IMG/VR virus record: IMGVR_UViG_3300029953_000001
Direction: 5' to 3' (one strand)
DNA: 64,000 nt
From: a virus
Positions 22,846 to 36,658 of the stretch are shown piece by piece. A program made the position numbers and the translations under genes. The number at the start of each line of letters is the position of its first letter. Positions within the stretch are counted from its first letter, which is position 1. Below the pieces are notes generated by a model. It was not told the DNA's origin. It worked only from the letters and a program-made list of their open reading frames with translations, and made no database searches.

Positions 22846-23871
22846 ATGACACCTGTACTTCTAACCCGAGACGACTTCCGCGAAGAGGTCTTCGCCAGAG
22901 ACAAGCATACGTGTGTCCACTGCGGCCAGCCGGGTGTGGACGCTCATCACATTCTCGAACGGAGACTATTTCCTGATGGCGGATATTACCTTTCTAACGG
23001 GGTCACCTTGTGTGGAGGATGTCACCTTGACGCCGAGTCCACTGGACTCGACTGTGATACTCTACGCCTCGACGCCGGAATCACTCGACCAGTGTACCCT
23101 CCGCATCTCGAAGAAGAGGGAGCCTACGACAAGTGGGGCAACCCTGTCCTTCCAAACGGACAGCGTTTCATGGGGGAACTCTTCTTCGAAGAAGGAGTCC
23201 AACGAGCCCTAAAGAACCACCTGTACCTCTTCACGGATAAGTACAAGTACCCAAAAACCTTCCACTGGCCCTCCTCCCCCGGACTTAGCAATGACGACCG
23301 GATGCACACGTCCACTGACCAATGGGACGGGTTAGAAGTGGTAGTAACCGAGAAGATGGATGGAGAGGGTACGACCATGGCGAGGGACTTCATCCATGCT
23401 AGGTCACTGGAATTCAGTCCCCATCCTTCTCGGACGTTCATAAAAGCAATTTGGGCTCAGGTTGCCAACGACATCCCCCTTGGGTTTCGTGTTATCGGGG
23501 AGAACGTCACAGCCATACACTCCATCGAATACTTTGACTTATCTTCTTACTTCTTCATCTTCAATATTTGGGAGGGGCATAAGTGTCTATCATGGGATGA
23601 TACGGCTGAGTACGCTGGGCTGTTGAACCTACCTACCGTCCCCGTTCTGTATCGAGGATTGTGGAAGGATGGATTGGTGGACGACCTTGCTTCTACTCTA
23701 AACTTCGAACGGCAGGAGGGTCTCGTGTTTCGACCCACGAGGAGCTTCACCTTGAAGGAGTTCCCCACCCTCATGGCTAAGTGGGTTCGGAAGGGTCATG
23801 TACAAACCGACGAACACTGGATGAGCCAACCCGTAAGGTTCAATGGATTGAAAATACCCGCGTGTAGTTGA
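22846..23871 (+). CDS. HNH endonuclease fused to an Rnl-type RNA ligase
   Basis: N-terminal HNH: CVHCGQ...DAHHILER...CGGCH. C-terminal nucleotidyltransferase motifs: I VVTEKMDGEGT, III RVIGENV, IV QEGLVFRP and V MAKWVRKGHV (Pfam RNA_ligase-like). Confidence 0.65.
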   Translation: MTPVLLTRDDFREEVFARDKHTCVHCGQPGVDAHHILERRLFPDGGYYLSNGVTLCGGCHLDAESTGLDCDTLRLDAGITRPVYPPHLEEEGAYDKWGNPVLPNGQRFMGELFFEEGVQRALKNHLYLFTDKYKYPKTFHWPSSPGLSNDDRMHTSTDQWDGLEVVVTEKMDGEGTTMARDFIHARSLEFSPHPSRTFIKAIWAQVANDIPLGFRVIGENVTAIHSIEYFDLSSYFFIFNIWEGHKCLSWDDTAEYAGLLNLPTVPVLYRGLWKDGLVDDLASTLNFERQEGLVFRPTRSFTLKEFPTLMAKWVRKGHVQTDEHWMSQPVRFNGLKIPACS

Positions 23872-23909
23872 GTTTGGATACTTTCAGCCTCTTATATGGA
23901 GGCTGGGAT

Positions 23910-24473
23910 ATGACTTTAGAAGAGAGAAGGAAACGGGCTGAGAACGCCCTGATGAAGTATCACAGTAGACGGGAGTCGGGGGTATGCGTTGCCTGTGGGC
24001 AGAACCCTCCCGTTGAAGGAGTCTTACGATGTGCTGGTTGTAGAAAAGTAAGAAAGGCTACATCGCAAAAACAGAAGTATAATAGACCCGAAGGTAACTG
24101 TAGGCAGTGCCTCACCCGTAAGGCAGTTCAGGGTATCACCAGTTGTTCGGTGTGTAGGGAGCGAGGAAGAAAGAAGTCAAAGGCTCAACACCGAGACGTA
24201 CGAATTCGAGTAATAACAAGGTATGGCGGTCGGTGTACTTGCTGTGGAACTTCAAACTACAAGTACCTCCAACTCGACCACAAGAACGACGATGGTAACG
24301 TAGAGAGAAAAGCTCTACCACCTTCAATCAGAGGCTCTCGGTACTTCAAGATGGTGCTGAGTCAACCTAAACGAGACGATTTACACCTTCTCTGTGCTAA
24401 TTGTCACAATGCTAAACGGTATGGGGGTTGCACCCCCGAAGACCACCCACTAAGGATGCGTGATGAGCGATGA
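23910..24473 (+). CDS. HNH endonuclease with Zn-ribbons
   Basis: GGAGG SD followed by ATG 23910. Contains CVACGQ...CAGC...CRQC...CSVC and the HNH core LQLDHKNDDGN...LLCANCHNAK. Confidence 0.6.
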   Translation: MTLEERRKRAENALMKYHSRRESGVCVACGQNPPVEGVLRCAGCRKVRKATSQKQKYNRPEGNCRQCLTRKAVQGITSCSVCRERGRKKSKAQHRDVRIRVITRYGGRCTCCGTSNYKYLQLDHKNDDGNVERKALPPSIRGSRYFKMVLSQPKRDDLHLLCANCHNAKRYGGCTPEDHPLRMRDER

Positions 24474-24795
24474 GGCTCAAAAGGAAATAAACAAAATCGT
24501 ACAGGCATCGCATGATTCCGGCCCTCATGTCGTACACGACATCTTCGATGGGTTTATGGCTCTATCGCGAATAATGGGGGAGCAAGCGCGTCAAGTTAGA
24601 CACATTAAACATGAGAGACGCAAGGAACGTGCTAGAGCACGCTACGCACTCAACAAGAAACTGGGCATACCAAATCGTAAGCCTAAAGCCGCATCTGAAC
24701 CGGAGCCGGAATACGAGGCTCCGACGAGTTGCTACTGCCATATGGGGCACCCACCCTGTAGCTGGTGTACCAGAGAGACTGAAGAAGAGGAGTAA
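24460..24795 (+). CDS. hypothetical protein (111 aa) with a basic segment and C-terminal CxC...C
   Basis: ORF. Confidence 0.45.
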   Translation: MMSDEAQKEINKIVQASHDSGPHVVHDIFDGFMALSRIMGEQARQVRHIKHERRKERARARYALNKKLGIPNRKPKAASEPEPEYEAPTSCYCHMGHPPCSWCTRETEEEE

Positions 24796-24797
24796 AC

Positions 24798-25040
24798 ATG
24801 GGACGCGGTGATTTTGCATTTGAGAACGACTACTTTGGCGATACAAAAATGGAATCAAAGGATACACCAGAGCAGAGAGACCTTGATGAGGAAATTAGCT
24901 TCATTGAGGGTCTTGCTGCTGGTCTCCTTCTTGCCAAGACGGACGAGAGGGATGAGGAGGAGAGGAACAACATCGAACACGACCGGCTGGTATTCCTCCG
25001 GGCCGTTGAACGTCTCAAGAAGATTCGAAAGGCGTTGTAA
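24798..25040 (+). CDS. hypothetical acidic protein (80 aa)
   Basis: ORF. Confidence 0.4.
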   Translation: MGRGDFAFENDYFGDTKMESKDTPEQRDLDEEISFIEGLAAGLLLAKTDERDEEERNNIEHDRLVFLRAVERLKKIRKAL

Positions 25041-34791: not shown

Positions 34792-34964
34792 TGGCTACCG
34801 TTACGATTGGTTACTACGACTGTGAACCGCGTCGTCGGTTCGATAAGGACTTCCCCTTTTACTGCCTGTTTATGCGTCTACGCGATAAGTACCGTCGCGA
34901 GACCCTTGAACGGCACTGGCAGAAGCTGGTCGCAATTCAGGCCAAGAGGATGTACTGGTAATGG
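34791..34964 (+). CDS. small hypothetical protein (57 aa; not in the supplied ORF track)
   Basis: MATVTIGYYDCEPRRRFDKDFPFYCLFMRLRDKYRRETLERHWQKLVAIQAKRMYW has protein-like composition. The overlapping 34807 frame is R-rich nonsense. Confidence 0.35.
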
Positions 34965-35176
34965 AAACCGTCAAGCAAGTTCGTGCTCTCGTCAAGGCCC
35001 ACAAGGGCCGGGTCATGATGGACGCCCTCGTTCAGGATGATACGTGGACGGTTCAGGTCATGAAGGTGGATGTACTCCACTACCTCAAGTTCTTCAACCC
35101 CACCGATGTATCGCCGGTCTACACCCGCGTGGACAAGCATGGCGACCTCCACCTTCACCCCATGAACAATCGCTGA
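34961..35176 (+). CDS. hypothetical protein (71 aa)
   Basis: ORF with an ATGA overlap. Confidence 0.45.
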   Translation: METVKQVRALVKAHKGRVMMDALVQDDTWTVQVMKVDVLHYLKFFNPTDVSPVYTRVDKHGDLHLHPMNNR

Positions 35177-35290
35177 GGCCCCATGATTATTCCCCCGATA
35201 CCAGAAGAACTCGCCCGGATGGAGAAGGCCAAGTCCGAGATTTACGCTGCCTTCGGTTAAAGTAGTCCATTTTTTGCCTCCTCTACTAAA

Positions 35291-35350
35291 GAGGAGCAAA
35301 GTCGAATTATTTTGGCAAATTTGTACCCAGAATACCTGAGACTCCGGTAT
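35291..35350 (+). promoter_or_regulatory. promoter TTGTAC...TATACT with ATG about 7 nt downstream (leaderless) for the CCA-adding enzyme gene
   Basis: tcgaattattttggcaaattTGTACccagaatacctgagactccggTATACTgtgtgtATG. Confidence 0.45.
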
Positions 35351-36658
35351 ACTGTGTGTATGGATATGAGTGCCGCAGCCAGTATAGTGTTGAATACCTT
35401 ACGTAGAGCAGGGTATGAGGGAAACCTCGTGGGGGGTTGTGTACGAGATTTAGTGTTGGGAAAAACCCCCAAGGACTTCGACGTTTCGACCAACGCACGC
35501 CCGGAGCAGGTTCAGCCTCTGTTTGAGAAAACCACTCCAGTCGGTGCCAAGTTCGGCGTCGTCGTGGTCATAGTGGACGGTCACCAGATAGAGGTTGCGA
35601 CGTACCGTGCAGATGGCGAGTACACCGATGGACGCCGCCCGGACGAAGTTCGCTACAGCGAGTCGGCTGAAGAGGATGTTCTTCGCCGCGATTTCACCAT
35701 GAACGGGCTGATGTCCCTGATACCGTTTGGCCCCGCTGGCGACCCGTCCAACTTCGTGGTTGACCACGTTGGCGGTTTGTCAGACCTGAGAGCCGGTTTG
35801 GTTCGCTGCATAGGCAACCCGGATGACCGTTTCATGGAAGACCCGGCACGCATGTTGCGTGCGGCTTCCTTCGTCGCCCGGTTGGGCTTCACTGTGGAGC
35901 AAGGTACGTTCGACGCGATAGTGCGAAATGACAGCCGGGTACGGATGGTTAGCATGGAGCGAGTTGCGGCTGAACTGAAGAAGCTGGTCGTTGGGCCGTT
36001 CGCGGTTCAGGGTCTGACTCTCTTGGCTTCTACTGGGTTGTTGACTCAGGTATTCGGACTGGGCTTCACGTCCTCTCTGAACTTCGCTTCGATGCTGGAG
36101 CGGTTCACCAAGTTCCCGACCAAAGACCCGTTGCTGGGTCTGGCGATGTTCTTTGCCGATTGTTCCAGTGACCTGCAAATGGCGATGGCTGTCAACAGCC
36201 TGAAGCTGTCGGTAGGAGAGCGGGATGTTGTCGTCAACGCTGTGGCTGAGAAGCTGGATAGAGTTCTCAACGCAGATGACGCCACCGTCAAGCGGTTCGC
36301 TCGTAAGCCGGGTGTCCTGTCGCATGGGGTTGACCTGTTCGAGCAGACTGTGAACATGACTCAGGGTAGGGACAGAGGCGGCTTGGACTTGCGTGAGACG
36401 ATGGCACGTGCGGTTCTGGTTGAACGCTTCCGGGCATTGACGCCGGAAACTGTCCGCCCGGTGCCGATGGTCATGGGACAGGATTTGATGGACATGGGCT
36501 TCAAGCCGGGGCCGATGTTCACTCGGGTCTTGTTCGCTGTGGAGACGGAGCAGTTGAACGGGAACTTTGACGAGAGACGCTTCGATTCACGGCAGGAAGC
36601 ATTGGACTTCGCACGAGGGTTCGCGATGTCGGACATGGAGTTGACGAATGGCCGATAA
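35351..36658 (+). CDS. cca: tRNA nucleotidyltransferase (CCA-adding enzyme) / poly(A) polymerase, class II
   Basis: GGCVRDLVLGKTPKDFDVST ... RDFTMNGL matches the GGxVRD...DxD...RDFTxNA head-domain signature. The start coordinate is approximate, within a few nt of 35351. Confidence 0.7.
   Translation, partial: TVCMDMSAAASIVLNTLRRAGYEGNLVGGCVRDLVLGKTPKDFDVSTNARPEQVQPLFEKTTPVGAKFGVVVVIVDGHQIEVATYRADGEYTDGRRPDEVRYSESAEEDVLRRDFTMNGLMSLIPFGPAGDPSNFVVDHVGGLSDLRAGLVRCIGNPDDRFMEDPARMLRAASFVARLGFTVEQGTFDAIVRNDSRVRMVSMERVAAELKKLVVGPFAVQGLTLLASTGLLTQVFGLGFTSSLNFASMLERFTKFPTKDPLLGLAMFFADCSSDLQMAMAVNSLKLSVGERDVVVNAVAEKLDRVLNADDATVKRFARKPGVLSHGVDLFEQTVNMTQGRDRGGLDLRETMARAVLVERFRALTPETVRPVPMVMGQDLMDMGFKPGPMFTRVLFAVETEQLNGNFDERRFDSRQEALDFARGFAMSDMELTNGR

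Follow-up and report, generated by a model that had tools for sequence, protein, structure and literature searches.

Fusions of an HNH nuclease domain to an RNA ligase are already on record for huge phages. In section 3.4.9 of Iyer et al. 2021 (PMC7824862), which cites Burroughs & Aravind 2016, such a fusion is noted under the name "Rnl2 family", which is used broadly there; among the components of jumbo-phage RNA repair, that section also names CCA-adding enzymes and HAD phosphatases. The corresponding protein family is PHROG 24030, with Caulobacter phage CcrBL9 gp226, Acinetobacter phage ME3 gp200 and halovirus HGTV-1 gp233, an "RNA ligase", as examples. Here we analysed a 64,000-nt stretch of IMG/VR virus record IMGVR_UViG_3300029953_000001 (hereafter the window), in which an earlier note had picked out an HNH and RNA ligase fusion (HNH::Rnl), a CCA-adding enzyme and a HAD-like hydrolase as one gene set for RNA or tRNA repair. 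The sequence features of these three genes are real and far beyond chance. The fusion, which the earlier note had regarded as unusual in architecture, belongs to PHROG 24030; this family is widespread in huge phages and already described, and the window protein is a typical member that adds no new architecture.

HNH::Rnl (22846-23871, + strand) is a protein of 341 residues in which an IscB/Cas9-like HNH (beta-beta-alpha-metal) zinc-finger nuclease domain (residues ~1-65) is followed by a conserved linker with a DKWG motif (~66-127) and by an ATP-dependent RNA-ligase adenylyltransferase domain (~128-341). The latter is C-terminal, with no domain after it, and the chain ends ~25 residues past motif V. 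Residues 164-314 matched the Pfam RNA_ligase profile PF09414 over positions 2-171 of 171 (E=2.2e-25), with a score of 90.2 bits against a gathering cutoff of 27, and the PHROG 24030 profile matched the protein from end to end (E=6.4e-102). Residues 23-62 scored just under the Pfam cutoff for HNH (19.8 vs 21.4 bits); the HNH domain was backed by 13 PHROG HNH families (best E=4.6e-9), and the N-terminus aligned with the HNH domain of IscB. The PF09414 and PHROG HNH matches uphold the proposed fusion of HNH to a complete Rnl-type ligase, and the four motifs read from the sequence, VTEKMDGEG, VIGENV, EGLVFRP and KWVRKG, are all found in the translation.

Two alignments were made, one of 25 relatives at 51-76% identity and another of six distant members, including those of Salicola phage SCTP-2, Ralstonia phage RsoM2USA, Caulobacter phage CcrBL9, Acinetobacter phage ME3 and halovirus HGTV-1. 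Invariant in both were the zinc ligands and catalytic residues of HNH (C23, C26, H34, H35, N51, C56 and H60), the DKWG of the linker (D95-G98), a KYPxxxH element (K134, Y135 and H140) and the ligase motifs I (K170, D172 and G173), Ia (R186), III (E219), IV (E291, G292 and R296) and V (K312 and R315), so that these residues hold from bacterial phages to an archaeal halovirus. They include the catalytic His and Asn, the metal-binding His and the zinc site expected of an HNH enzyme (H35, N51, H60 and C23, C26, C56). The ligase motifs stand in the order of the superfamily, namely K170-x-D172-G173, E219, E291-G292-x-V-x-R296 and K312-x-V-R315, with the lysine nucleophile in place as K170. An AlphaFold2 model of the protein was confident and compact (predicted local distance difference test 89.7, predicted template modelling score (pTM) 0.81), and its top matches among solved structures were NgrRnl (Rnl5), archaeal Rnl3 and T4 Rnl2, all at ~15% identity. 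Sequence searches of the PDB, with the single protein and with a profile, returned no solved relative of the ligase subfamily, only the IscB HNH domain and noise. By its Pfam score and motifs, HNH::Rnl is a predicted ATP-dependent RNA ligase of the Rnl2/Rnl5 type.

In comparison with the other PHROG 24030 fusions, the window protein shares the architecture, the length (~340 residues) and every conserved motif, with no structural difference, at 27-49% identity to members from cultured viruses and 53% to that of the uncultured phage LR745208.1. What differs is its surroundings, since the window copy has Ku, LigD, PARP and major-vault-protein (MVP) homologs, instead of tRNA genes, in its vicinity. 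The best fold match was to Rnl5 (6vt4, E=1.8e-6, ~15% identity), the type of Naegleria NgrRnl and Deinococcus DraRnl. Like Rnl5, HNH::Rnl has a C-terminal adenylyltransferase domain, an N-terminal accessory domain and nothing after motif V; unlike Rnl5, it carries an HNH nuclease and linker in place of the N-terminal OB-like fold, and KxVR rather than KxK as motif V, which sets it apart from Rnl5 proper. Its PF09414 domain is that of T4 Rnl2 (gp24.1), and the ligation chemistry is probably the same. However, the all-helical C-terminal domain that follows motif V in T4 Rnl2, and is needed there for nick sealing, is missing, so that HNH::Rnl falls outside Rnl2 in the strict sense.

A tblastn search found full-length HNH::Rnl in 17 phage records, among them the archaeal halovirus and cultured jumbo phages that infect Salicola, Caulobacter, Ralstonia and Acinetobacter; ligase-only versions were found in XacN1, Atu_ph07, Phosso and Lak phages. 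A large protein collection held 2271 relatives, the best 120 of which were all ~340 residues long, many of them on contigs of 300-900 kb, and in IMG/VR the fusion occurs on at least 366 contigs. A shorter ligase call of 233 residues in a related locus (L006) was considered as a natural variant without HNH and rejected, because its DNA does not differ from that of the window (100% identity) and the difference lies only in gene calling.

We then surveyed 80 IMG/VR loci, each comprising the ligase gene and 10 kb on either side and together forming 64 clusters at 80% identity. No protein family recurred in more than 10 of the 80 loci, and thus HNH::Rnl has no obligate partner gene; no kinase family was among the recurrent neighbours. 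At least three tRNA genes, and up to 31, were present within 10 kb in 21 loci (19 of the 64 clusters), and in four loci a tRNA gene was located 2-30 nt from the HNH::Rnl open reading frame (ORF) on the same strand. When nearby tRNA genes, CCA enzyme, Thg1 and RlaP were taken together, 40 of the 80 loci had one or another of them. The commonest annotated protein neighbours included metallophosphoesterase (10 loci), Thg1 (8), PhoH (6) and RlaP (5), while DNA ligases were of NAD-dependent (7), ATP-dependent (7) and window type (3). The density of tRNA genes was 2.03 per 10 kb at HNH::Rnl loci versus 0.08 at control loci chosen by PhoH; this control is alignment-based, samples smaller, tRNA-poor phages and is unmatched (an earlier control with a single PhoH sequence gave 8 loci). 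In the window itself, ARAGORN found no tRNA gene, Rfam found no known RNA family (tRNA-like, Y, vault or other) at the gathering threshold or at E<=1, and no ORF contained a Walker-A kinase motif. A T4-type end-healing system is therefore not present in the 64 kb.

To judge from the embedding of HNH::Rnl genes in tRNA arrays and from their Thg1, RlaP and CCA neighbours, tRNA would often be the substrate, and the reading we favour, at a probability of roughly 55%, is that HNH::Rnl repairs broken RNAs, often tRNAs, with 5′-phosphate and 3′-hydroxyl ends. Ends of this kind are the product of metal-dependent nucleases (PIN, Toprim and HNH, the HNH domain of the fusion itself included), whereas classical anticodon nucleases leave 2′,3′-cyclic phosphate and 5′-hydroxyl ends. 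The gene has no kinase or phosphatase as a regular companion, so the ends of its substrate are probably already 5′-phosphate and 3′-hydroxyl, in which case the enzyme would need no such partner, and this fits the lack of a conserved partner gene. By analogy with the ligase superfamily, ATP would adenylylate K170, the AMP would be transferred onto the 5′-phosphate end, and attack by the 3′-hydroxyl would seal the break, the most likely substrates being broken RNAs, especially tRNAs, whose ends need no healing. The HNH domain might bring damaged ends into a ligatable form by trimming, or could act as an independent DNase. The proposed logic of cut-tRNA repair is shared with the T4 Pnkp-Rnl1 pathway that counters PrrC; unlike that pathway, the window has no polynucleotide kinase-phosphatase within its 64 kb, and 2′,3′-cyclic phosphate and 5′-hydroxyl ends would not be healable by the known route. 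The proposal of a counter-measure to tRNA-targeting defences stands in part: tRNA arrays and tRNA-end repair neighbours fit it at the level of the family, while the window offers neither a kinase nor tRNA genes.

The question matters because phage repair enzymes decide the outcome against many bacterial defences that cut tRNAs. Defences of this sort (PrrC/RloC, PARIS, OLD, retron-Septu, Cas13 and HepS) are described in bioRxiv 10.64898/2026.07.10.737580. Members of the HNH-RNA-ligase family abound in huge phages, and the family raises the questions of its substrate and of the purpose of its nuclease domain; to these the survey adds that the genes are often embedded in tRNA arrays, that Thg1, RlaP, CCA and metallophosphoesterase genes recur beside them and that a kinase is lacking, which together give a concrete hypothesis for a widespread enzyme. 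The family could also yield a useful RNA ligase reagent.

Several results weigh against tRNA repair by HNH::Rnl. CCA-type genes were present within 10 kb in 7 of the 80 loci, which is about the chance rate for one gene per 300-kb genome, and DNA ligases adjoin HNH::Rnl about as often as tRNA-repair enzymes do. The excess of tRNA genes may be only about twofold over the tRNA-rich background of huge phages. No tRNA gene was found within 5-10 kb of the ligase in the window, in its closest relatives or in any of the five cultured viruses checked. The ligase-only orthologs of XacN1 and Atu_ph07 are located in replication modules. HNH::Rnl could not seal 2′,3′-cyclic phosphate and 5′-hydroxyl ends without healing enzymes, none of which were identified in the window, and we found no biochemical study of any member of the fusion family in the literature.

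Some of these results would be expected if HNH::Rnl acted on DNA or on RNA:DNA hybrids, nicking or trimming and then sealing them in phage DNA repair or replication together with Ku, the LigD-like ligase and WGR-PARP, in which case the breaks sealed would have ribonucleotides on the 3′-hydroxyl strand. All three of these partners are encoded in the window on the same strand, synteny between DNA ligase and HNH::Rnl is kept in relatives, and DNA ligases were among the commonest neighbours in the survey, with that of HGTV-1 located 3 kb upstream. The ligase-only orthologs lie amid primase/helicase, SSB, RecA and DNA polymerase genes, the top fold match is the nick-sealing NgrRnl, and HNH enzymes are typically DNases. 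This explanation nevertheless leaves the embedding in tRNA arrays and the Thg1, RlaP and CCA neighbours unaccounted for, the phage already encodes a dedicated DNA ligase, and the PF09414 enzymes characterised so far, such as Rnl2 and Rnl5, need an RNA 3′-hydroxyl strand. We hold action on DNA to be the main rival, possible though on balance rather unlikely. A different division of labour has been put forward in the treatment of these fusions by Iyer et al. 2021 (PMC7824862), where the HNH domain attacks the DNA of the host or of competing phages and the ligase separately repairs RNA cut by host effectors, so that the two share no substrate. The invariance of the HNH catalytic residues and zinc ligands across deep divergence would agree with it, as would the abundance of conflict genes in this region (polyvalent ART/GNAT proteins, Sir2 and PARP). 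However, two unrelated activities need not remain fused, and this fusion has been kept in viruses as far apart as bacterial phages and an archaeal virus; its DKWG linker is invariant, and its model is confident and compact (pTM 0.81). These three features argue for coupled action on one substrate, and two independent activities appear improbable to us.

Coupled action could take two further forms. HNH::Rnl might be a single-polypeptide "trim-and-seal" enzyme of RNA repair, with the metal-dependent HNH nuclease replacing healing by kinase and phosphatase. The nuclease would re-cut tRNA ends that carry 2′,3′-cyclic phosphate and 5′-hydroxyl groups, or that are chemically modified, into 3′-hydroxyl and 5′-phosphate ends; the CCA enzyme, Thg1 and RlaP, template-independent or -dependent nucleotidyltransferases whose genes recur next to it, would refill the lost nucleotides, and the fused ligase would then close the break. 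If true, this would give huge phages a kinase-free route to undo tRNA-cleaving defences, but we consider it a long shot. The other form had been raised as an alternative in the earlier note, namely a self-contained enzyme of RNA processing or editing, in which HNH excises an RNA segment and the ligase rejoins the ends. It is chemically possible, as HNH cleavage yields 5′-phosphate and 3′-hydroxyl ends, exactly the substrate of the ligase; both active sites are conserved within one compact polypeptide, and some genes of the family lie inside tRNA arrays. Nothing in the window supports it, however: neither a candidate target RNA nor an intron-like element was found there, with Rfam empty and tRNAs absent, and ligase-only orthologs exist and persist, the HNH part having apparently been lost in one related locus (L106). 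We judge this last form very unlikely. Repair of broken RNAs with 5′-phosphate and 3′-hydroxyl ends, tRNAs among them, remains the reading we prefer.

The CCA gene (35360-36658, + strand, start uncertain) encodes a predicted class II CCA-adding tRNA nucleotidyltransferase that lacks an HD domain. Its identity as a CCA or poly(A) enzyme and its end at 36658 agree with what had been proposed, CCA type being the better match; the start does not, as 35351 is not a start codon. Candidate starts are ATG 35360, GTG 35354 and TTG 35312, giving an ORF of 432-448 residues, with ATG 35360 the likeliest. The Pfam hidden Markov models matched the PolyA_pol head (PF01743, E=1.4e-34, 119.6 bits) and the RNA-binding domain (PF12627, E=1.1e-11), and thus the domains expected of this protein (PF01743) and of the ligase (PF09414) were both confirmed. 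The top NCBIfam match was the Bacillus-type CCA enzyme PRK13299, which covered the full length at 245.6 bits against an equivalog cutoff of 290. CCA type was favoured over poly(A) polymerase in NCBIfam (CCA model E=8.6e-73 vs PcnB 3.3e-56, only the CCA model matching full length) and in the PDB, where the top match was BstCCA (1miv, E=3.5e-52) versus 4e-39 for E. coli poly(A) polymerase. The protein aligned residue by residue to BstCCA and contains GGCVRD...DFD, RRDFTMN and EDPARMLRA, which correspond to the class II motifs A (GGxVRD...DxD), B (RRD) and D (EDxxR). It shares the head and neck domains, motifs A-D and alignment over the full length with BstCCA and the phage family PHROG 2244, and differs from the Bacillus-type class II set in staying under the equivalog cutoff. 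The possibility of a pseudogene or a host-derived gene was rejected, since the ORF is intact with catalytic motifs A-D and its GC content at third codon positions (GC3) is 0.67, compared with 0.6-0.8 in neighbouring phage genes. tRNA nucleotidyltransferases were found in 422 phage records and are common in large phages; most simply, the enzyme would repair or mature tRNA 3′ ends by itself, as in many of these. Between the small ORFs that precede it and the CCA gene lies a near-perfect hairpin, TTGCCTCCTCT...AGAGGAGCAA (35266-35300), with a T-run before it, which could be a terminator or regulatory element.

The HAD-like gene (25819-26463, + strand) encodes a candidate phosphatase of 214 residues with a capless (C0-type) HAD fold. 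It has motifs I (DxDxT), II (T/S), III (K) and IV (acidic pair) of the superfamily and the Rossmannoid fold, and most closely resembles capless phosphatases of the SCP/FCP/MDP-1 type. The capless type, which acts on macromolecular substrates and comprises SCP1/FCP1, UBLCP1, MDP-1 and the phosphatase domain of T4 and Clostridium Pnkp, has the same fold, DxDxT/Thr/Lys/acidic motifs and absence of a cap; unlike these named enzymes, the window protein shows no family membership at sequence level (10-17% identity), and the Pnkp1 phosphatase (4xru_D) ranked only 49th in Foldseek. The HAD fold and motifs are thus confirmed; the proposal that it serves as the phosphatase half of an end-healing system was not supported, the nearest resemblance being to the SCP/FCP/MDP-1 type and the window having no complete end-healing system. 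No homolog of this family was found among 50,697 phage records. Downstream is a gene for an HD-type phosphohydrolase-like protein of 197 residues (26724-27317, + strand) with an H...HD pattern, which matched PHROG 19425 "phosphohydrolase" (E=1.3e-17) and nothing in Pfam or the PDB. Among eight distinct IMG/VR loci of the HAD-like gene, HNH::Rnl was 0.8-2.4 kb upstream in four and the HD gene downstream in five, and two metagenomic relatives (L001 and L004) have the order ligase, HAD-like, HD as in the window. Since these loci have the genes for DNA ligase, Ku and MVP in common as well, a functional link cannot be told apart from synteny inherited in a single phage clade. The HAD-like and HD proteins, which accompany the ligase in this clade, are uncharacterised candidate phosphoesterases and may clean 3′ or 2′ phosphates. 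Plural HAD phosphatases had been proposed, and a second HAD gene does exist, although it lies outside the range of the supposed set (22846-36658): an NT5C-type deoxyribonucleotidase of 161 residues (18443-18928, + strand) with a FLDCDGV motif, for which PF06941 was found on the identical gene in L005 and L006. Its role is more likely in nucleotide metabolism.

As for the proposed gene set, the ligase, HAD-like and CCA genes form a loose neighbourhood of RNA-end repair candidates, which is neither an operon nor a demonstrated tRNA-repair system. They are not contiguous: downstream of the ligase, the HAD-like gene follows after 1.9 kb and the CCA gene after 11.5 kb, and the stretch from ligase to CCA gene also holds a PARP gene, a pilin-like ORF and ~30 small ORFs without annotation. 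Nor are they conserved together beyond close relatives: the HAD-like gene was present in 4 and the HD gene in 6 of the 80 loci, the co-occurrence of CCA genes is at the chance level given above, and in Caulobacter phages the CCA gene is ~75 kb from the ligase. In cultured phages the ligase is located amid hypothetical genes or beside genes of NAD salvage. The exception is halovirus HGTV-1, in which DNA ligase, SPFH/Band-7 (~1 kb upstream of HNH::Rnl), HNH::Rnl, SprT and tRNA nucleotidyltransferase genes are found within 10 kb, echoing the combination in the window. Where Burroughs & Aravind set out an RNA-repair "syntax", it consists of a ligase, a nucleotidyltransferase, an end-modifying enzyme and a scaffold; the window holds such parts (ligase, CCA nucleotidyltransferase, HAD/HD and SPFH-like MVP genes) spread over 32 kb, and HGTV-1 a similar set within those 10 kb, while none of the components recurred in more than 10 of the 80 loci. 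Other relatives have genes of NAD metabolism directly beside HNH::Rnl, namely NAD synthase, Macro, NUDIX and His_Phos_1 in L004 (1832-9907) and NMN adenylyltransferase/ADP-ribose pyrophosphatase in Salicola phage SCTP-2 (L011, 2698-3771).

Immediately after the ligase gene, overlapping its stop codon by 4 nt, starts a free-standing Cys-rich HNH endonuclease of 201 residues (23868-24473, + strand; PHROG HNH families 2255 and 1985). Its GC3 is 0.46, compared with 0.6-0.8 for its neighbours, and it is probably a mobile homing-type endonuclease. Homologs adjoin HNH::Rnl in L014 (11026-11523) and L106 (6400-10500). In the latter, GIY-YIG and HNH2-like ORFs apparently took the place of the HNH part of the ligase gene; a ligase-only ORF remains, and the HAD-like gene is split. 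The rearrangement and the adjoining homologs suggest a hotspot of homing endonucleases.

The window as a whole looks like part of the accessory region of a huge, uncultivated phage, an arm for "repair and conflict". One of its genes has an identical copy on 21 contigs, the longest of 431,749 bp, and the region of the ligase gene is 100% identical between the window and contigs, shorter than this longest one, of one JGI sample (3300037278) and one ENA sample (ERZ27249459). Megablast of 22000-37000 against the 50,697 phage records found no match and thus no near relative. The coding strand is + as far as ~37.3 kb and - beyond that point. The larger ORFs were scanned against Pfam, NCBIfam and PHROG. 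At the left end, a Ku homolog (11-712, +, E=7e-30) is followed by a 357-residue protein without family match (967-2040, +), which adjoins an R2K-clade ATP-grasp protein (2053-2841, +) and lies between Ku and an MVP homolog of 861 residues (4208-6793, +; MVP shoulder E=8.6e-25 and a Vault_3 repeat). A TPR protein gene and then that of the LigD-like DNA ligase occupy 16192-17457 (+). The latter is a minimal ATP-dependent enzyme of 269 residues (16648-17457, +; PF01068 E=1.4e-15, NCBIfam non-homologous end-joining ligase domain E=7e-22), and is syntenic with HNH::Rnl in L001, L004, L005, L012, L013, L015, L105 and L106; the upstream TPR gene is also part of this synteny in relatives. Ku and this minimal ligase suggest a phage-encoded end-joining pair.

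To the right of the ligase are the WGR-PARP gene (29919-31583, +) and, beyond the strand switch, Sir2 (37804-38637, -) and four giant polyvalent proteins of 825-2485 residues (38706-41288, 42469-47286, 47314-54771 and 59218-61695, all -), with repeated ART-PolyVal, GNAT, ParB_N, SprT-like, Tpt1/KptA-like and PARP-like domains. A 1442-residue protein adjoining them (54897-59225) had zero Pfam matches. At the switch itself, an ORF of 170 residues (37314-37826, -; GC3 0.75) has an acidic stretch and a start, MYHAT...ILRDGL, reminiscent of ART domains; its assignment as a KptA/ART domain was dropped, as Pfam, PHROG and NCBIfam gave no match and it did not significantly resemble the adjacent ART-PolyVal protein. 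The co-occurrence of an MVP homolog, WGR-PARP, Sir2 and many ADP-ribosyltransferase domains in one phage region recalls the MVP, PARP4 and NADase of eukaryotic vaults. MVP homologs were found in three huge-phage records, and the MVP gene is located 2.3 kb from HNH::Rnl in LR756500.1 and 4 kb in L085. The small pilin-like ORF at 32833-33096 (+) carries a type IV prepilin N-terminal methylation motif (GFTLIELLIVV), which is unexpected in a phage accessory region, and the identical gene in L005 matched PF07963.

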